Shown one piece after another: positions 15,791 through 64,000 of a DNA stretch of 64,000 nucleotides. The stretch covers positions 7,570 to 71,569 of the forward strand of contig JAQVSI010000001.1 in NCBI GenBank assembly GCA_028700625.1, given 5' to 3'. The DNA comes from Candidatus Shapirobacteria bacterium (GTDB lineage Bacteria; Patescibacteriota; Microgenomatia; UBA12405). The translations under genes and the position numbers were made by a program. Under the pieces are notes generated by a model. The model did not search any database. It saw only the letters and a list, made by a program, of their open reading frames with translations, and was not told the DNA's origin. The stretch's first letter is position 1. Every line of letters starts with the position of its first letter.

Positions 15791-15797
15791 TTTTAGG

Positions 15798-15871
15798 TGG
15801 GTATGCATGGACTCGAACCATGGACCCCCGACTTATAAGATCGGTGCTCTAACCAACTGAGCTACATACCC
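15798..15871 (-). tRNA. tRNA-Ile (anticodon UAU), cloverleaf folded by hand; CCA not encoded
   Basis: Reverse complement GGGTATGTAGCTCAGTTGGTTAGAGCACCGATCTTATAAGTCGGGGGTCCATGGTTCGAGTCCATGCATACCC: 7-bp acceptor, D-arm, anticodon loop CTTATAA, T-loop TTCGAGT. Confidence 0.7.
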
Positions 15872-15875
15872 TAAG

Positions 15876-15949
15876 TAGCAGGAGTGGGACTCGAACCCAC
15901 GACCTCAGCGTTATGAATGCTGTGCTCTAACCGGCTGAGCTACCCTGCC
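15876..15949 (-). tRNA. tRNA with anticodon CAU (Met elongator or lysidine Ile2)
   Basis: Reverse complement GGCAGGGTAGCTCAGCCGGTTAGAGCACAGCATTCATAACGCTGAGGTCGTGGGTTCGAGTCCCACTCCTGCT; anticodon loop TTCATAA; G-U pairs at the acceptor ends. Confidence 0.65.
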
Positions 15950-15985
15950 AAAGTATATGAATTATACCAAAATTTATAAAGATTT

Positions 15986-16035
15986 CTCCCTTTCATCAAA
16001 GAGAGATGCCCCGCAACAGCGGGGAGAGGGATTTA
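15986..16035. repeat. Palindromic element, copy 4 (between tRNAs): TCTCCCTTTCATCAAAGAGAGATGCCCCGCAACAGCGGGGAGAGGGATTT
   Basis: Repeat family member. Confidence 0.65.
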
Positions 16036-16083
16036 AGACAAAAAACAAAAAAGCCGCCTAATTAAAGACAGCCCCTTTGTTTG

Positions 16084-16153
16084 TTGCGGGGCTAGGAGTT
16101 GAACCTAGCCTGTGAGATTATGAGCCTCACGTGCAGCCGTACACTACCCCGCA
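16084..16153 (-). tRNA. tRNA with anticodon CAU (70 nt, short D-arm, 4-nt variable loop; fMet or Met/Ile2)
   Basis: Reverse complement TGCGGGGTAGTGTACGGCTGCACGTGAGGCTCATAATCTCACAGGCTAGGTTCAACTCCTAGCCCCGCAA; perfect 7-bp acceptor, anticodon loop CTCATAA. Confidence 0.5.
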
Positions 16154-16625: not shown

Positions 16626-17495
16626 ATGGCCGACTTATCAATTGAAAACGCTTTAAGTCTTTTCACTAGCGCGCTTACCAAAAATGGTAAGTCAATTAAT
16701 ACTATTGTAGCTTACAAAGGTGATTTGAACCAATTAATTGTTTTTTTACAAAAACAATTTCAAATTTCTACCGTTGACTTAGTTAATGAAGATTCTATTG
16801 AAGCTTTTAAAAAAAATTTAACTCAAAACGAATATACTGCTAAATCTATTTCTCGTAAACTTAATTCGGTTAAAAACTTTTTTTCTTTCTTAAAAAATGA
16901 ATCTATTATTACTATTGATCCTTCTCTTGAAATTAAACATCCAAAATACGAAAACGATTTACCAAAAATTTTAAAGCCAATTGAATACAGATCCCTTCGT
17001 GACGCCTGTCGAAATGATAGCCGTGCCACTGCCATTGTTGAATTAATGCTTCAATCGGGTTTAAGAATTAAAGAAATCGAAAGTTTAAAACTTGACGATG
17101 TAAAAGACAATGAGCTTTTAATCGAAAGTTATGAGTCTCATTCTTCTCGAGTTGTTCCTTTAAATAACTCAGCCAAAACTGCTCTTAAAAAATATTTAGA
17201 TGATGGTCGCTATCCAGGAAAAGCTAAAAATGTTTTTGTTACCAAAACTGGTCGTAGTTTATTAGCCAGAAACATTAGAAGTCTTTTAAATCGTTACTTT
17301 ATCAAGGCTGACATTAAAGATATTAAAGTTAATGATCTTCGTAACACTTTCATCGTTTTTCAGCTTAAGTCAGGTGTTCCAATTGATATTGTCTCTCAAG
17401 TCGTTGGCCATAAACGCATTTCTACTACTGAAAAATATTTGGAATTAATCGATTCTAAAGAAGAATCCAAAGGCATCAAATTAAAAGAACTCTAA
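16626..17495 (+). CDS. xerD: Tyrosine recombinase, XerC/XerD-like
   Basis: N-terminal SAM-like core-binding domain (TIVAYKGDLNQL), catalytic region LRNTF..VGHKRISTTEKYLEL (R..H..R..Y). Confidence 0.7.
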   Translation: MADLSIENALSLFTSALTKNGKSINTIVAYKGDLNQLIVFLQKQFQISTVDLVNEDSIEAFKKNLTQNEYTAKSISRKLNSVKNFFSFLKNESIITIDPSLEIKHPKYENDLPKILKPIEYRSLRDACRNDSRATAIVELMLQSGLRIKEIESLKLDDVKDNELLIESYESHSSRVVPLNNSAKTALKKYLDDGRYPGKAKNVFVTKTGRSLLARNIRSLLNRYFIKADIKDIKVNDLRNTFIVFQLKSGVPIDIVSQVVGHKRISTTEKYLELIDSKEESKGIKLKEL

Positions 17496-31562: not shown

Positions 31563-33026
31563 CTATCCTATTGCTACTATTTGTCTTAATTTAGGCAAAA
31601 ATATAGATGTATATTCAGCAAAGTCTTCTTTTTGAATTTCTCTTGATCCTGTCTCTCTAGCTGGTTCTCGTCCATGACCTAAAATAAAATTTTCTAATGA
31701 ATTTAAGTTAAATCTTTTGTAAAAATCGATTAATTCATGTCCACTAGCATGGCTACTATTACCATCAGCCCAAATTACTTCTGCAGTTTTTCTTTCTACT
31801 TTTCCATTTTCAATTTCTTTTATCATTTCTGCACCTCTAGTTCCTGGAACTTGAAAACAAGTAAGAATAAATGAATTATTAGGGTTTTGATTAAATTTAC
31901 CGCTTCTATAATTAACCGATCTCCCTCTAGTTACCATTCCACCACTAGCAAATACAATTGCTTTTTCTGAAGAATAAGCTAGATGTTCAACTAATAGTTT
32001 TGACTGTTCATGTGACTCAACTATAGTCAGATTTTTTATATTAAATCGACTCATACTATTTTCCTTAGTTTTATAAAAGCATGGATCATCACCATACCAA
32101 TTACTCATATAATCTGGACCTAAATCTTGATGAACTTTTAATACTTTTCTTGGCAACGGTGCATCCATGTAAAAATGATAATCAAGAAATTGACCCCTAC
32201 ATTCTTGATCATTGTGAAATATTTCCATTGTTGGTGCCAATCTGCCAGCTATAAGTGGCATCACCGAAACTCCACCTCTTTGTGCAGTTTTTGTTACTGC
32301 ATTAAATATATTAATCTCTCTTTCACTAAAAGAAACTGGATCTTTTTCGAAACAAGTTGATTCGGTTAATATCGTGTGAATTCTGCAGTCAGGGTATTTA
32401 CTGGAATATTCATTATAACCACCGCATGTCAATTGATTTGGTCTACCAATATCACCAGTAAATAAGGTATTTTTTTTAGTAACACCATCTTTAATTAATA
32501 CTGACACACTTCCGTTCATGTGGCCGTTTGGTATTAAAATAGCTGTTATTTTACCGTGACGACTTCCAATATCAATTTCTTCAAATGCTTCAATTATTTT
32601 CACTCGTTTTAAAATATCATTAACATCTTTCCTATTATAAAGTGGTTTTTTTTCCTTATCGCTTTCTTGAATTTTTACAGAGTCTTCCAACATTATTTTT
32701 GAAAGTTAAAATGTTTCTCTTGTAGTATAAACATTTGGAGTAAAACCATATTTAGCAATTAATGGAAATAATCCAATGTGATCAATATGGGCGTGAGTCA
32801 TAAAAAAATCTGATGTCCCTCGACAAATTTCACTTATATATTCAAGGTCTCTTAGTCTTCCTTTTTCAGATATTTCTTCAAATTTTCCTTGAAATTTCCC
32901 ATAATCAATTCCGATTTTATTATCTCCACGCTCGTAAATATGGCATGATCCAGTTACTAACCCTCCACTTCCGCCAAAAGATTCAACTGTGACATTATTT
33001 CTTTCGCAAGATTCTATTCTTTTCAT
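31563..33026 (-). pseudogene. Metallo-beta-lactamase-fold beta-CASP nuclease (RNase J/CPSF-like) interrupted by a single in-frame TAA (32706-32708); the two ORFs (32706-33026 and 31563-32693) are in the same frame
   Basis: N-terminal part carries THAHIDHIG (HxHxDH); downstream part carries TESTCF and HASGH beta-CASP motifs; only 4 codons including the stop separate them. Confidence 0.55.
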
Positions 33027-35639: not shown

Positions 35640-36770
35640 ATGTTTCTAGATCAAAAAAACTATTATTATTCTCTTCCAGATTCTTTAATTGCCAACAAGC
35701 CTGAATCTAGGCGTGATCACTGTCGTCTTTTGTCTTTAAACAAAAAAAATGGCAGTATAAATCACCTTAATTTTTTTGATTTAAAAAAACTTTTAGGCCC
35801 CAATGATGTTTTGGTTTTAAACCAAAGTAAAGTTTTCCCAGCTCGTCTTTTTGGTAAAAAAATAACTGGTGGTAACTTTGAAATCTTGTTACTTCGCCAA
35901 ATCAATGTTTTTTCTTGGTTGGCTATTTCCAAACCCCGTCTAATTGTCGGTCAAAATTTAACTTTTGGTCATAAATTAGAAGCTCAAGTTTTAACAAGCG
36001 ATAAAGATACCGGTCAAATTGAGCTTAAATTTAATCAAAGTCATCAAATTTTTCTTCAAACTTTAGATAAAATTGGATACACTCCACTTCCACCCTATAT
36101 TTCTACCAAGGATTCGGAAAAAGAAATTAGAAAAGAATATCAAACCGTTTATGCTAAAGAATTAGGCTCAGCAGCAGCTCCTACTGCTGGTCTTCACTTC
36201 ACCAAAAAATTAATTTCTGATTTAAAAAAACAGGGAGTTCAAATAGAATATATCACTCTTCATGTTGGTCTTGGAACTTTTCAAAACCTTCGTCCAGAAA
36301 ATATTGCAACTAAAACTCTTCATCAAGAATTTTACGAGATAACTCCAGATACTGCTAATCGCCTTAATCTGGCCAAAAAACAAGGTAAAAGAATTATTGC
36401 TGTCGGCACCACTTCCATCCGCACCCTCGAATCTGCTGCTACATTAATTAATAATAATTTAGAAAATTCTGAATTTACCATTTTTGAAGGCCTTGAACGT
36501 GCGACGCACATTCACCAGCCAAAAAAATGTGTGAAGAGGAATTTTTATAAAATTAACTCTGGCAAAAGTTCAACTCAAATATTTATTTATCCTCCCTACA
36601 AATTCAAATTTGTCGATGCTCTTATTACTAATTTTCACCTTCCAGAATCTAGCCTTTTAATGTTGGTTTCTGCCTTTGCTTCAAAAAAATATGTCTTTAA
36701 GGCTTATCAAGAAGCTATTGAGAAACAATATCGTTTTTTTAGTTTTGGCGACGCCATGTTTATTTTTTAG
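35640..36770 (+). CDS. queA: S-adenosylmethionine:tRNA ribosyltransferase-isomerase
   Basis: YSLPDSLIANKPESRRDHCRLL N-terminus and GTTSIRTLES motif. Confidence 0.8.
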   Translation: MFLDQKNYYYSLPDSLIANKPESRRDHCRLLSLNKKNGSINHLNFFDLKKLLGPNDVLVLNQSKVFPARLFGKKITGGNFEILLLRQINVFSWLAISKPRLIVGQNLTFGHKLEAQVLTSDKDTGQIELKFNQSHQIFLQTLDKIGYTPLPPYISTKDSEKEIRKEYQTVYAKELGSAAAPTAGLHFTKKLISDLKKQGVQIEYITLHVGLGTFQNLRPENIATKTLHQEFYEITPDTANRLNLAKKQGKRIIAVGTTSIRTLESAATLINNNLENSEFTIFEGLERATHIHQPKKCVKRNFYKINSGKSSTQIFIYPPYKFKFVDALITNFHLPESSLLMLVSAFASKKYVFKAYQEAIEKQYRFFSFGDAMFIF

Positions 36771-45931: not shown

Positions 45932-47662
45932 ATGACGTCAAACTTTTCCACTATAAAAATTGCTGGTCCTGCTGGTTCTGGCATTAAATCTGCCGGTCAA
46001 CTTTTTTCCAAATTTTTAATTGATCATAGTTTTAATTTGGTCGATTATAGTGAATATCCATCTCTGGTTCGTGGTGGTCACAATACTTATCAAATTACTT
46101 TTTCCGACGAAAAAGTTTTTTCCACTCATTTTAATGTGGATCTATTTTTTTCTGTCTATCCAAATCATTGGCAACAACACTTAGAAGAATTTACTAAAGA
46201 TACTTTAATTTTTTCTGATGAGGATTTCTCTAAAGTCAAAACTAAAGCTAAGTTTTTACGTCTGCCTTTAAAAGATATGGCCACTGAAGTTGGTAGTCTT
46301 TTAGTTGTTAATACACTTTGTCTAGGAGTAGCTGCTTATCTTTATGATTTAGATACTACTCTCATTAAAGATCTTATTTGTGAAACTTACGGTAAACACG
46401 GTGACTTAAACTGTAATGCTTTTAATATTGCTTATCAATATGCATTTAAAAACTTTTTTAAGTTTCAAATTAAAATAAAAAAACCAAGCAAAAAGATAAA
46501 AATGGGTTTTTATGACGGTAACGAAGCTTTTGGTTGGGGATTTATCAAGGGTGGTGGCATTTTTTATTCCGCTTATCCAATGACTCCAGCCACCGGTGCT
46601 CTCCATTTTTTGGCTGCCAAACAAACAGAATATAAATTAACAGTAATCCATCCAGAAGATGAAATTTCTTCAGCTAACATGGCTGCTGGTGCTGCTTTCA
46701 CTGGGGCTCGTAGTGCCACAGGCACTTCAGGTGGTGGTTTTGCTCTCATGAATGAAGCTATCAGTTTCTGTGGAATTACTGAAATTGGTATGGTTTATTA
46801 TTTAGTATCAAGACCAGGTCCAGCCACTGGCCTTCCAACGTGGACAAGTCAAGGAGATCTTCTTCATGCTATCTATTCTGGTCATGGTGAATTTCCCAAA
46901 GTTGTTCTTGCTCCAGGAGATCTCGATGAATCTTTTGAATTAAGCCATACTGCTCTTGATCTAGCTGCTCATCTCCAAACTCCAATAATAGTTTTAAGCG
47001 ATAAATTAATCGGTGAATCAAGTGGTAGTACTAATTATTTCCCAGAAATGGAAGTAAAAATTGATAAGGGTGAAATTCTAAATGAAATTGAAGATGAAGA
47101 TTATAAAAGATATGCTTTCACTAAAAACGGCATTTCTCCACTTTCTCTTCCAGGCACTCCAAATGGTGAATTTTTATCCAACAGCTATGAACATGACGAA
47201 TATGGTTTTGCCACAGAAGATGCTAATCTTTCAGAAAAAATGTCTAAAAAGAGAATGTTAAAAAATAAAGTTGCTTTAACTATTTGTCCAAAAGCTAATT
47301 TTTTTGGATCTAAAAAAGCCAAAAAATTAATTATTGCCTGGGGTTCTCCCAAAGGAGCTATTCTTGAAGCCTTAAAATTAATAGAAAATAAAGAAGATTT
47401 TGCTTTTTTACAATTAAAAACTCTCTGGCCAATTAATCCTGAAATTAAAACTATTATTAATGCTTTTAAAGAAATTATTGTTATAGAAAACAATGGTACT
47501 AGCCAACTAGTTACTCTTCTTAAATCTCAATTCGATTTTAATCCAACTAGAATAATCAATAAAAACAATGGCCGTCCTTTCTTTCCAGAAGAAATCATTA
47601 AATTATTAAAAAGTTATCCTGTCAAAGGAAATGCACGCAGGGCAGAGGGTTTAAAACTATGA
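45932..47662 (+). CDS. 2-oxoacid:ferredoxin oxidoreductase alpha subunit (fused gamma-alpha, KorA-like); C-terminal residues encoded by a repeat copy
   Basis: N-terminal gamma-like IKIAGPAGSGIKSAGQLF; alpha domain GNEAFGWGFIKGGGIFYSAYPMTPAT. Confidence 0.7.
   Translation: MTSNFSTIKIAGPAGSGIKSAGQLFSKFLIDHSFNLVDYSEYPSLVRGGHNTYQITFSDEKVFSTHFNVDLFFSVYPNHWQQHLEEFTKDTLIFSDEDFSKVKTKAKFLRLPLKDMATEVGSLLVVNTLCLGVAAYLYDLDTTLIKDLICETYGKHGDLNCNAFNIAYQYAFKNFFKFQIKIKKPSKKIKMGFYDGNEAFGWGFIKGGGIFYSAYPMTPATGALHFLAAKQTEYKLTVIHPEDEISSANMAAGAAFTGARSATGTSGGGFALMNEAISFCGITEIGMVYYLVSRPGPATGLPTWTSQGDLLHAIYSGHGEFPKVVLAPGDLDESFELSHTALDLAAHLQTPIIVLSDKLIGESSGSTNYFPEMEVKIDKGEILNEIEDEDYKRYAFTKNGISPLSLPGTPNGEFLSNSYEHDEYGFATEDANLSEKMSKKRMLKNKVALTICPKANFFGSKKAKKLIIAWGSPKGAILEALKLIENKEDFAFLQLKTLWPINPEIKTIINAFKEIIVIENNGTSQLVTLLKSQFDFNPTRIINKNNGRPFFPEEIIKLLKSYPVKGNARRAEGLKL
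47617..47656. repeat. Palindromic element, copy 10, forming the last ~13 codons of the oxidoreductase alpha subunit (..PVKGNARRAEGLKL*)
   Basis: TCCTGTCAAAGGAAATGCACGCAGGGCAGAGGGTTTAAAA. Confidence 0.65.
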
Positions 47663-48282
47663 ATATTAATTATCGCTCAAAAATTGTTCCCACTTAGTGT
47701 CCAGGTTGTCATAACTTTTTAGTTTTTTCAGCTATTCAAACTGCTTTTAATTCTCTTAATTTAAAATCTTCCGATGTTGTCATGAATTACGATATTGGTT
47801 GTGTTGGTAATATGGCTGATTTCTTTAAAACTTATGGTGTTCATACTCTTCATGGTCGATCTATTGCTGTCGCTATGGGTGAAAAATTAATCAATCCAAA
47901 TCTTATGGTTTGTGTTATTGCTGGTGATGGTGGTGCTTACGGTGAAGGTTTAAACCATTTAATCGCCGCTGCCAGGGCCAACATTGATATTAAAGTTTTT
48001 GTTTCTAATAATTTTCTTTACAGTTTAACCACTGGTCAGACCAGTCCTACCACTCCCAAAGGTGCTCGCACAAAATCAACTCCACTTGGTAATTTAAACG
48101 AACCAATCAATATAATAGAGTTACTCAAAACTATTAACCCTAATATTTTTGCCAAATCAGTCGATGCTAAAAATATTTCTGAAGTTACCAAAAGAATAAA
48201 AGAAGCTCTTGAATTTAAAGGCTTTGCTTTTGTTGAAACCCTCCAGGAATGTGTCGCTTTTGGTAAACAATTAAAAAGCTAA
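47659..48282 (+). pseudogene. 2-oxoacid:ferredoxin oxidoreductase beta (TPP-binding) subunit with an in-frame TAG at 47695-47697 replacing the conserved Trp of the WCPGCG motif
   Basis: ATG at 47659 overlaps the alpha stop (ATGA); reads MNINYRSKIVPT-TAG-CPGCHNF..; downstream GDGGAYGEGLNHLIAAARANIDIKVFVSNNFLYSLTTGQTSPTTPKG is the TPP-binding signature. Internal ATG at 47782 would give a truncated product. Confidence 0.55.
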
Positions 48283-50520: not shown

Positions 50521-51351
50521 ATGCAAATTTTAGATGGCAAAAAACTTTCAGAAAAAATTCTAAATGACTTGTCGTCAGAAATTAGAAATTTAGATATTAA
50601 ACCAACTCTAGATATTATTATCGTTGGCAACGATCTTTCCAGTCAAAAATATGTGGAAATGAAGCAACAAAAAGCCGAATCTATCGGTATTGGCGGAAAC
50701 ATTCATCAACTAGATCAAAACTCTACCACAGAAGCTGTTTTAGCTCTAATTGATAAATTAAATCAAGACAATTTAGTTACTTCTTTTATGGTTCAGCTTC
50801 CGCTTCCATCGCAAATTGATACCGAAAAAGTTTTATCCCAAATTAATCCTAAAAAAGATGCTGATGGTCTTAGTCCTTTTAATCTGGGTCTTCTTTTCCA
50901 AAAAAAATCAAGTGGAATTGTTTCTGCCACGGCTCTAGGAATTATTAAATTATTAGAAGAGTATCAAATTGATGTCAGCGGTAAAAACGCGGTAATAATT
51001 GGTCGTAGTCCAGAAGTATCAATTCCATTATTTGCCTCACTTATGGCAAAAAATGTAACAGTAACCATCTGTCACACCTCCACTCAAAATTTACCAGAAA
51101 TTTGTAAAAATGCCGATATTTTAATTTCATCTATTGGTAAGGCAAAGTTTGTCAATAAAAACTTTATTAAAGAGGGTGCTGTTATTATTGATGTTGGTTT
51201 TAGTATTGATTCAAATGGTTCTCTTTCTGGTGATTTTGATTTTGATCAAGTTGCTCCGATTTCTAGTTTTATCACTCCAGTTCCTGGCGGTGTCGGCCCT
51301 ATGACCATCGCTTCACTTCTTTCTAATACCGTCCAAATTGCTAAAAAATAA
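50521..51351 (+). CDS. folD: Bifunctional methylenetetrahydrofolate dehydrogenase/cyclohydrolase
   Basis: MQILDGKKLSEKI start; NAD(P)-binding and catalytic-region pattern; 276 aa. Confidence 0.8.
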   Translation: MQILDGKKLSEKILNDLSSEIRNLDIKPTLDIIIVGNDLSSQKYVEMKQQKAESIGIGGNIHQLDQNSTTEAVLALIDKLNQDNLVTSFMVQLPLPSQIDTEKVLSQINPKKDADGLSPFNLGLLFQKKSSGIVSATALGIIKLLEEYQIDVSGKNAVIIGRSPEVSIPLFASLMAKNVTVTICHTSTQNLPEICKNADILISSIGKAKFVNKNFIKEGAVIIDVGFSIDSNGSLSGDFDFDQVAPISSFITPVPGGVGPMTIASLLSNTVQIAKK

Positions 51352-61319: not shown

Positions 61320-61941
61320 ATATTTAACAAAAAAAACTATTAATTTATTTCCTCTTTTTTGGCCAAGATTTTATGTCTATTTAAGATCAATAGTATTGCC
61401 TCTTTTTCAAATTGAATCTCTTTTACCCCCAAAAGGATCAATTTTAGATGTTGGCTGCGGTTATGGATTTACTTCAATTTTTTTTGCTCTTAAAAATAAA
61501 AAGCGTCAAATTTTTGGCTCAGAAATTGAATCAAAAAGAGTTTTATTGGCGAAAAAAGTTTCAAAATCTATTTCAAATATCTCGTTTGAAACTTCAGATT
61601 TGATCAATAAAAATAAATCAAAATTCGATGTTGTTTTGGCAATCGATCTTCTTCACCATATAAATTTTTCTCAAAAAAAGACTTTTTTAAAAGATGCTTC
61701 TTTAAAACTAAAGCCAAAAGGACTTTTAATTATTAAAGATATCGATACTACACCTATACATAAATATTTTTGGAATTATATTCATGATTCAATCATGACC
61801 AAATTTTCCAAACTTTATTTTTTATCTTCTAATCAAATAGAAAATCTTTTAATTAAAAATAATTTTAAAATTATTAAAAAAGGAAAATATAAAAACCTTT
61901 TTTACCCACATATTTTTTATGTTTGTCAAAAAAACTTTTAA
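61255..61941 (+). CDS. Class I SAM-dependent methyltransferase
   Basis: ILDVGCGYGFTSIFFAL motif I; LAIDLLHH motif. Confidence 0.6.
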   Translation: MLKKHGQFLIIQPSEYINMSNKYLTKKTINLFPLFWPRFYVYLRSIVLPLFQIESLLPPKGSILDVGCGYGFTSIFFALKNKKRQIFGSEIESKRVLLAKKVSKSISNISFETSDLINKNKSKFDVVLAIDLLHHINFSQKKTFLKDASLKLKPKGLLIIKDIDTTPIHKYFWNYIHDSIMTKFSKLYFLSSNQIENLLIKNNFKIIKKGKYKNLFYPHIFYVCQKNF

Positions 61942-63646
61942 TTATCAAATATTTTTCATTTTTTCAATTTTTTGTTTATCCTTAATAATCAGGCTTTTTA
62001 ATATTAATTGGGATCAAGGCCAACATCTTCATCCAGACGAAAGATTTTTGACGATGGTAGAAAGCACCATTAAATTGCCAAACTCACTTTCCCAGTATTT
62101 AAATACTGGTGATTCTCCTTTAAATCCATACAACTATAAAGAATTTCAATTTTTCGTTTACGGTACTTTTCCTATTTTTTTAATTAAATACATATCAAAT
62201 TTTATTAATATGGGTGAATATCATCAGGTTTATTTAGTTGGTCGATTTTTTTCTGCCTTTTTTGATTCATTAAACATAATCGGTATTTATTTATTTATGA
62301 AATTTTTAATTAAAGAAAAGAAAAATAAATTTATAGTTTTATTGCCAAGTTTCTTATATGCTTTTTGCGTTTTACCAATTCAGTTATCTCATTTTTTTGC
62401 TGTCGATACTTTTTTAACACCAATTTTATTATTTACTTTTATTTTTCTTGTTTATTGGATTTCCAAAAGAAAAATTATTTTTCTTTTAATCGCTGCCGTT
62501 TTATTTGGGTTAGGCCTTTCAACTAAAATTTCTGCTTATTTATTTTCACCAGTAATTTTACTTTTTTTTATTTATCATTTTTTCACCACTAAAAACAAAA
62601 TACAAACTTTATACTTATCAATTATTTTTTCTCTGATAAGTCTTACTATTTTTAGATTTTTTCAGCCATATGCTTTTGTTGGTTTATTTAAAATAAATCC
62701 AATTTTTGTTGAAAACATGGTTTATTTAAAATCAATGTTAACTAACAAAAATGTTTTTTATCCACCAGAAATTCAATGGTTAAGTAAAACACCTCTAATT
62801 TATCCTCTCTATAACATTTTAGTTTGGGGTCTCGGTTTACCCCTCAGTTTAATTCTTTTTTTAAAAATAAAAAAAACCACCAATCCATTTGTTGTGTTTT
62901 GCATTATTTTTTGGATTCTTTTTCTTTTTATTCAACAAGGTCTTCAATTTACTCACACTATGCGTTATTTTCTACCAATTTATCCATTTATATTTGTTTT
63001 AGTTGGTTTAATTTTTCAAAATCATTTTTCTAAAAAAATTCTTTTTATTTTACTTTCACTGCATGTTATTTATTGTTTGTTCTTTATTTCAATTTACACT
63101 CGGCCACATTCTCGAATTCAAGCCTCAAATTGGATTTATAAAAATATTCCTTCAGAATCAAAAATCGCCAATGAATATTGGGATGATCCGCTTCCTCTTT
63201 ATTTAGACTCTTCTAATTTTTATTCAAACCAAACACTTGATCTTTATTCCCCAGACACTCAAGAAAAATGGCAGAAAATTAACTCCATTTTAGAAGACAC
63301 AGATTATCTTTTTCTTAGCTCAAATCGTCTATGGTCTTCTATTCCGTCAGTTCCCAAAAAATATCCTTTAGCTACTAAATATTACCAAGATCTTTTTGAT
63401 GGTAATTCAAATTTTAAGAAAATAATAGAATTTAATTCTTATCCAGGCATTTCACTCCCTTTTTTAAACAAGTGTTTTTATTTTGGTCCAACTAATTTTC
63501 CTTATTCACAAAATGAAAATAAATGGTTTGAGGTCAACAAAAGTTGTCTTTATCCAGGGATTTATCTTAGAGATGATGTTGCTGAAGAAGCTTTTTCAGT
63601 CTACGATCATCCAAAAGTAATTATCTTTAAAAAAATGATAAACTAA
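61919..63646 (+). CDS. GT-C fold polytopic membrane glycosyltransferase (second paralogue)
   Basis: 575 aa, HLHPDERF motif after TM1; many TMs. Confidence 0.45.
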   Translation: MFVKKTFNYQIFFIFSIFCLSLIIRLFNINWDQGQHLHPDERFLTMVESTIKLPNSLSQYLNTGDSPLNPYNYKEFQFFVYGTFPIFLIKYISNFINMGEYHQVYLVGRFFSAFFDSLNIIGIYLFMKFLIKEKKNKFIVLLPSFLYAFCVLPIQLSHFFAVDTFLTPILLFTFIFLVYWISKRKIIFLLIAAVLFGLGLSTKISAYLFSPVILLFFIYHFFTTKNKIQTLYLSIIFSLISLTIFRFFQPYAFVGLFKINPIFVENMVYLKSMLTNKNVFYPPEIQWLSKTPLIYPLYNILVWGLGLPLSLILFLKIKKTTNPFVVFCIIFWILFLFIQQGLQFTHTMRYFLPIYPFIFVLVGLIFQNHFSKKILFILLSLHVIYCLFFISIYTRPHSRIQASNWIYKNIPSESKIANEYWDDPLPLYLDSSNFYSNQTLDLYSPDTQEKWQKINSILEDTDYLFLSSNRLWSSIPSVPKKYPLATKYYQDLFDGNSNFKKIIEFNSYPGISLPFLNKCFYFGPTNFPYSQNENKWFEVNKSCLYPGIYLRDDVAEEAFSVYDHPKVIIFKKMIN

Positions 63647-63650
63647 AGCT

Positions 63651-64000
63651 GTGAATTTAAACCTAAAAAAAATTCTATTTTGGCAATCAAAAAAAGATTT
63701 TCTTGTTGTTTTTGATCACGATTTTTGGGGAGAAATTTCTTTAATTTTTTTAAATTATTCAATTTGGATTTTTTTCTTTTTTCTTTCTTATCAATTAATT
63801 TCTTTTGATATTAATTTTTTTGGCCGTCTTCTTATTGCCACCATTATTGCCGAATTAATTGAAAGAGGTCTTAAAAAGAAATGTTTTTGGATTAGACCTA
63901 TGTTTAATCGTCGAAAAGTTTCGCCAAAAGGTTTAGTTAATAATTGGTATCACAGTGGTTCTTTTCCGTCGGGCCACACCATGAAAGCCACTTTTTTCTT
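63651..64000 (+). CDS. PAP2-family phosphatase (3'-truncated by window edge; GTG start)
   Basis: KKKCFWIRP (KxxxxxxRP) and SFPSGH PAP2 motifs. Confidence 0.6.
   Translation, partial: MNLNLKKILFWQSKKDFLVVFDHDFWGEISLIFLNYSIWIFFFFLSYQLISFDINFFGRLLIATIIAELIERGLKKKCFWIRPMFNRRKVSPKGLVNNWYHSGSFPSGHTMKATFF

Follow-up and report, generated by a model that had tools for sequence, protein, structure and literature searches.

Whether an in-frame amber codon directly ahead of the cluster-binding cysteines of a beta subunit is a mutation, an error or a decoded stop is the question raised by a 2-oxoacid:ferredoxin oxidoreductase (OFOR) locus of a Candidatus Shapirobacteria bacterium. The locus lies within a stretch of 64,000 nucleotides of contig JAQVSI010000001.1 (assembly GCA_028700625.1), hereafter called the window, which has a base composition of 31% GC and a layout of open reading frames (ORFs) that fits the standard bacterial code. 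The beta gene adjoins, in the same orientation, an alpha gene with POR and POR_N domains. Direct reading bears out what had been proposed from the sequence alone, namely that the beta ATG at 47659-47661 overlaps the alpha TGA stop at 47660-47662 (ATGA) and that a TAG stands just before a CPGC motif. Twelve sense codons (MNINYRSKIVPT) lead from the ATG to this TAG at 47695-47697, which is directly followed by TGT CCA GGT TGT CAT AAC TTT, encoding CPGCHNF. The next stop in the frame is the TAA at 48280-48282, in agreement with the earlier view that the thiamine pyrophosphate (TPP)-binding domain 3' of the TAG is intact and free of further in-frame stops. As detailed below, near-identical contigs of the same species have TGG at this codon. 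The interrupted codon is a one-step nonsense allele or a miscall, the most ordinary category of such cases; a real, very recent loss-of-function allele is the best reading and, in our judgement, a probable one.

With tryptophan substituted at position 13, the 207-residue product matches the Pfam family TPP_enzyme_C (PF02775) with an E-value of 4.8e-26, residues 46-193 covering profile positions 2-150 of 151. From WCPGC onward it aligns with the OFOR beta structures 5b48_B, 5b46_B, 8ys5_C and 6n2n_B (E=1e-34 to 1e-43), the value for 5b48_B being E=7.6e-43. In the Sulfolobus tokodaii enzyme StOFOR, the CXGC loop Cys12b-Cys15b is a ligand of the proximal [4Fe-4S] cluster (PMC5020499). In the alignment, C14, C17, C48 and C198 of the read-through frame correspond to Cys12, Cys15, Cys46 and Cys197 of 5b48_B. 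Of these four, Cys46 and Cys197 are presumably the remaining two cluster ligands. The two subunits resemble those of the (alpha-beta)2 enzymes StOFOR1/2 (PDB 5B46, 5B48): alpha comprises domains III, I and II (POR, POR_N and PFOR_II), beta corresponds to the TPP-binding domain VI with the CXGC loop, two more Cys ligands, a single [4Fe-4S] cluster and a GDG...NN TPP motif, and a ferredoxin-like domain V is lacking in both. They differ from StOFOR in the length of beta, which has 207 residues versus ~305 and is without the last ~100 residues, to which the dimer-contacting extension belongs. The frame, which would have to be open throughout in a functional OFOR beta gene, is broken by the TAG at codon 13. 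Homology identifies the locus as an OFOR beta gene, of which this assembly contains a disrupted allele.

A homologue search with the beta subunit gave 1,277 matches. The best of them, P0001 (NCBI MFA7676405.1), is 100% identical over all 207 amino acids and has W at position 13. Besides P0001, 119 listed relatives were used for residue counts; they are 205-227 amino acids long, and in nearly all of them the C-terminus is ...AFGKQLKS or very similar. Directly ahead of C-P/S-G-C, 98 of the 119 have W and 21 have F. A comparison at the DNA level covered 86 related loci from GTDB genomes and Joint Genome Institute (JGI) metagenomes, where the codon equivalent to codon 13 reads TGG in 71 cases and TTT in 15; none of the 86 loci has a stop at this codon, nor an internal stop anywhere in the beta frame. 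The position is aromatic and not, as the sequence-only reading had it, an invariant Trp, and the local motif is WCPGCH/N instead of the WCPGCG that had been named. Relatives starting at the internal Met without an upstream CPGC would have spoken against a disruption. Instead, the beta starts of all relatives lie 11-13 codons 5' of the aromatic codon and the CPGC motif is present in every one; hence, the gene in the window is truly interrupted. The short beta subunit (~206 amino acids) holds across the Shapirobacteria/Microgenomates relatives, whereas the interruption of codon 13 occurs in this assembly only. Within this clade (the window and loci L003-L089), beta is uniformly short with 205-207 amino acids and ends just past the fourth Cys ligand (QEC-x-AFGKQLKS), while relatives at identities of at most 43%, from DPANN archaea and a Wenzhouxiangella metagenome-assembled genome (MAG), have 68-81 extra C-terminal residues.

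The origin of the stop was narrowed down with contigs of the same species, ~99.9% identical to the window, from five samples (ENA ERZ27247350, JGI 3300014204, JGI 3300035208, JGI 3300037067 and Logan SRR22315503). Codon 13 is covered in three of the five samples, by independent assemblies, and reads TGG in all three: in ERZ27247350 (L001, with 12 single-nucleotide polymorphisms (SNPs) and no indels relative to the window over 15,493 bp), in 3300014204 (L002 and L038, the former with 4 SNPs over 3,885 bp) and in 3300035208 (L101, with 4 SNPs over 3,318 bp). The sole difference of the window's beta gene from P0001, L001, L002 and L101 is TGG>TAG, confirming the earlier statement that a single transition separates the two codons; it is one G>A relative to three sibling assemblies. 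The nearest haplotype is L101, which came from the look-up of the alpha protein; look-ups of an SdpI-like gene and a methyltransferase added only L100, a contig ending in beta before codon 13. L101 encodes an alpha protein identical to that of the window, including the variants I210 and I484 that are absent from L001 and L002, and within the operon it differs from the window only at 47635 (synonymous) and 47696 (TGG versus TAG). The fact that it encodes the alpha protein of the window and yet reads TGG means that G>A is the derived state and younger than the closest shared haplotype. G>A is also the direction expected of new mutations in a genome with 31% GC. The allele resembles young pseudogenes and nonsense polymorphisms segregating in bacterial populations in that it is one base away from intact alleles of near-identical strains, shows no further decay, has a stop that is not conserved and is accompanied by other private nonsense alleles nearby; a qualitative difference from such pseudogenes was not found in this comparison.

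Generally, the SNPs among the strains cluster in the 3' part of alpha and the start of beta (46560-47696, the kor operon). Six of the 12 differences from L001 fall into this operon, and relaxed selection after inactivation of the enzyme was considered as an explanation. It was rejected, as two of the six occur in L001 alone and another two are also found in L101, whose beta gene is intact; the region is therefore simply polymorphic among strains. Sample 3300035208 contains two haplotypes, L100 and L101, which overlap at 47997-48047, and both contigs break within beta, which indicates that the assembly was fragmented by strains living side by side.

In a Candidatus Shapirobacteria genome (Microgenomates, candidate phyla radiation (CPR)) using the standard bacterial code, a single G>A at 47696 would turn TGG (Trp13) into an ordinary, unprogrammed stop in the beta subunit of the two-subunit enzyme. 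Translation from the alpha-coupled ATG would end after 12 residues, and the only possible in-frame restart, at Met42, would give a fragment of 166 amino acids. This product retains Cys48 and Cys198 and is devoid of Cys14 and Cys17, two of the four [4Fe-4S] ligands. For lack of the cluster-ligating CXGC loop, the enzyme should be inactive in cells carrying the allele. The public annotation calls the 166-residue product (P0052, MDD4026621.1, 'thiamine pyrophosphate-dependent enzyme'), and the beta subunit of this lineage is already unusually short; however, the N-terminal CPGC segment is kept in 119 of 119 listed relatives and in 86 of 86 loci, the loss of two ligands would affect the sole Fe-S cluster of the enzyme, the 12 codons 5' and 28 codons 3' of the TAG show no difference from the intact siblings as yet, and it is the upstream start, not Met42, that the ATGA couples to alpha. 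That the strain possesses a genuine, functional, shortened beta subunit starting at Met42 is hence extremely improbable. The 166-residue product (from Candidatus Shapirobacteria) has one member, on one contig of 72,064 bp, and in a collection of 15 billion proteins this form is present only as the window's own NCBI record. Exact look-ups of the 166-residue product and of the protein encoded at 16626-17495 gave no match. The MDD4026621.1 annotation describes a fragment and merits a pseudogene flag or a re-check of the reads.

An argument from ribosome binding, based on a GAGGG ahead of the ATG at 47659 and no Shine-Dalgarno motif ahead of Met42, was dropped, as the genome hardly uses such motifs. 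Shine-Dalgarno-like motifs were seen in 3 of 33 window genes. A TAnAAT (-10-like) box lies only ~5-10 nt 5' of the ATG in many cases (e.g. 20286, 36786, 49065, 50521, 54425 and 58901), which suggests leaderless mRNAs or mRNAs with very short leaders.

The gene could still be expressed if the stop were decoded, either by a suppressor tRNA with an amber anticodon (CUA) or an ochre-type one (UUA, which would decode this TAG as well as the TAA in a beta-CASP gene described below), by near-cognate readthrough or through reassignment of TAG. An intact downstream frame with all four Cys ligands kept is expected of an expressed gene and the window contains two in-frame stops, but a mutation too young for further decay explains the intact frame equally well, and both TAG and TAA are normal terminators here: of 62 long window ORFs, 49 end with TAA, 8 with TAG and 5 with TGA. 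The latter five, along with the high coding density under table 11, are consistent with the earlier claim that TGA is a true stop. For TAG, termination was verified at QueA (35640-36770), which matches its Pfam profile over positions 2-322 of 322 and then ends with TAG, the in-frame ORF behind it being a separate and complete MscL. The other seven TAG-ended ORFs meet another stop within 2-45 codons, and the beta gene itself ends with TAG in ten relatives. A reassigned TAG would not serve as a terminator; recoding of TAG was rejected in view of its use at the end of eight ORFs, of QueA being full length up to its TAG and of the TGG of the siblings. Recurrent in-frame TAG codons at conserved sense positions were seen neither in the window scan nor in the siblings or the 86 loci.

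Programmed readthrough would be expected to leave a stop and its context conserved among orthologues. The orthologues read TGG or TTT, siblings with identical flanks read TGG, and neither of the two stop positions in the window is conserved as a stop in relatives or siblings, so that there is no sign of an evolved signal. The residues inserted at UAG by near-cognate readthrough are mostly Gln, Tyr or Lys rather than Trp. The sequence-only reading had proposed to look for a suppressor tRNA with a CUA anticodon: none of the four tRNAs of the window (ARAGORN) or the six tRNAs in ~100 fetched loci has the anticodon CUA, UUA or UCA, which is a weak test, as it covers these loci and not whole genomes. 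The likeness to known cases of stop reassignment or suppression (UGA to Gly in CPR/Gracilibacteria, TAG to Gln in phages, UAG as pyrrolysine) is superficial and consists only of a stop in frame where a sense codon is conserved; unlike in those systems, TAG terminates in the window and occurs in frame a single time. Apart from the tRNA search, a weak test on the window and the fetched loci, the TAG at codon 13 fails on every count tested for a reassigned or programmed stop, and there is no support for reassignment, for decoding of the pyrrolysine type or for programmed readthrough. Taken together, decoding of the stop is very unlikely. In a weaker form, the strain might carry a poorly active ochre-type suppressor tRNA (UUA, reading UAA and UAG) or have unusually leaky termination, letting W13* and the beta-CASP allele E107* persist with low-level protein, an idea to which we give hardly any credence. 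Of the four explanations initially offered for the TAG, a recent nonsense mutation and a sequencing or assembly error stand, the codon being one G>A away from TGG siblings, while suppression and programmed readthrough do not, with TAG terminating, no conserved stop and no tRNA-CUA among the loci searched.

A second private stop was found in the gene of an MBL-fold/beta-CASP nuclease. Position 32708 is A in the window and C in four sibling samples, changing GAA (Glu107) to TAA at 32706-32708 and splitting the gene into ORFs of 106 and 376 amino acids. Over 2,044 bp this stop base is the only difference between the window and L093 from SRR22315503. The same gene carries an independent nonsense codon of its own, Q392* (window position 31853), in the sibling L091 from JGI 3300014204. 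A window-wide scan for ORFs split within the same frame yielded one in-frame TAG (beta), one in-frame TAA (beta-CASP) and no further broken genes. Other same-frame ORF pairs (TIM/Band-7, RNase H/VanW, polyprenyl synthase/DnaG and QueA/MscL) were rejected as broken genes, as they are separate genes, and so was an N-terminal truncation of DnaG, whose ORF from GTG 22580 includes the whole zinc ribbon.

The two nonsense codons bear on whether the A at 47696 is a real mutation or an artefact of consensus, sequencing or assembly, in which case the organism would have TGG and the A would be a low-coverage or damaged-base miscall or a rare read variant promoted into the contig. After inclusion of L101 and L102, five window-only alleles were counted (Table 1). 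None of them is a missense change, while 74-76% missense, 5-9% nonsense and 15-21% synonymous changes are expected for random single-base changes in the window genes. The consensus is therefore not generally error-prone, and the window-only synonymous changes have the appearance of real variation filtered by selection, not of noise. The density of private SNPs is 0.44/kb in the window versus 0.41/kb in the sibling 3300035208, and no indels relative to the siblings were observed over ~25 kb. Two of seven private SNPs are nonsense changes (P=0.05-0.12), a figure of little weight, as the first stop was the reason for selecting the site. The chance that two random errors both create stops is ~0.003-0.008, or 0.05-0.09 after discounting the selected first stop. 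The apparent nonsense excess is not statistically meaningful, and only the second stop is an unbiased observation. At a low error rate, a real nonsense allele private to a strain is several times likelier a priori than a stop-creating error, and Q392* of L091 shows that nonsense alleles recur in assemblies of this species.

Some observations weigh against a real allele. Both nonsense codons of the window are absent from the closest haplotypes (L101 reads TGG and L093 is without the beta-CASP stop), a pattern compatible with artefacts and with very recent mutations alike. Library damage, too, typically produces G>A and C>A, the classic deamination and oxidation types, and the A at 47696 is known from the assembly consensus. 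Moreover, the allele occurs in one assembly only, and some related public MAG contigs have a very low coverage (L003, cov 2.5), which is only a hint, since the window MAG may come from another study. Set against the absence of indels, the purely synonymous character of the other window-only changes, the improbability of two random errors both giving stops and the separate nonsense allele that another assembly has in beta-CASP, an artefact is possible but rather unlikely. We infer that the base is truly present in the DNA of the organism. The loss-of-function allele would then be private to the strain or a variant within its population, and may be one of several nonsense alleles segregating in the species.

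Provided that the allele is genuine, a Shapirobacteria strain has only very recently lost the one 2-oxoacid:ferredoxin oxidoreductase that can be recognised in it. Taken with the beta-CASP alleles, it would indicate that nonsense polymorphisms segregate in populations of these small-genome CPR bacteria, a phenomenon that is already known and that would fit weak purifying selection or a continuing loss of genes. Where sibling genomes exist, one in-frame stop at a conserved residue is no evidence for recoding.

Table 1. Features of the OFOR operon and the beta-CASP gene, and alleles seen only in the window (window coordinates).
Feature	Position	Strand	Remarks
OFOR alpha subunit, fusion of domains III, I and II, 576 aa	45932..47662	+	Pfam POR E=7.5e-20, POR_N E=9.8e-46, PFOR_II; intact
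Complete OFOR beta reading frame, 207 codons + TAA, interrupted at codon 13	47659..48282	+	Translation, Pfam TPP_enzyme_C, PDB alignments
Premature TAG, codon 13	47695..47697	+	Middle base 47696 is A in the window, G in every sibling covering the codon
CPGC, Cys14-Pro-Gly-Cys17 (CXGC loop, two ligands of the proximal [4Fe-4S] cluster)	47698..47709	+	Aligns to Cys12b-Cys15b of StOFOR
166-aa ORF from internal Met42	47782..48282	+	Next start codon in frame (ATG, GTG or TTG) past the TAG; annotated as NCBI MDD4026621.1
MBL-fold/beta-CASP nuclease gene, 487 codons if intact	31563..33026	-	Pfam matches of the repaired protein: Lactamase_B, Beta-Casp and RMMBL
Window-only allele	32708		E107* in beta-CASP
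Window-only allele	47635		Synonymous
Window-only allele	47696		W13* in OFOR beta
Window-only allele	56508		Synonymous
Window-only allele	57134		Synonymous

Further observations concern the sibling contigs and the tRNA genes. The ERZ27247350 sibling L095 falls from 99.9% to ~79% identity, with indels, at 62780-63967. This divergent block sits in the C-terminal part of a PMT_2 glycosyltransferase gene (61919-63646), where 3300035208 is near-identical to the window, and appears to be recombined or hypervariable. L092 has a smaller divergent block, with ~29 SNPs in 220 bp, at 32244-32466. Among the four tRNAs of the window, ARAGORN assigned a tRNA-Ile with the anticodon TAT beside two tRNA genes with CAT anticodons (15796-16153, minus strand); a tRNA-Ile with a UAU anticodon is uncommon in bacteria, which usually read AUA by a lysidine-modified CAU tRNA. 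The FolD gene (50521-51351) of the window carries P39L (position 50636, codon 39) in the conserved VGxDPxS motif, a position occupied in relatives by P (38), S (6) or Q (1) and never by L. The same P39L is present on the independent Logan contig L102 (SRR22315503), which is 100% identical over 1,994 bp, so that it represents genuine strain variation, not a mistake of the assembly.

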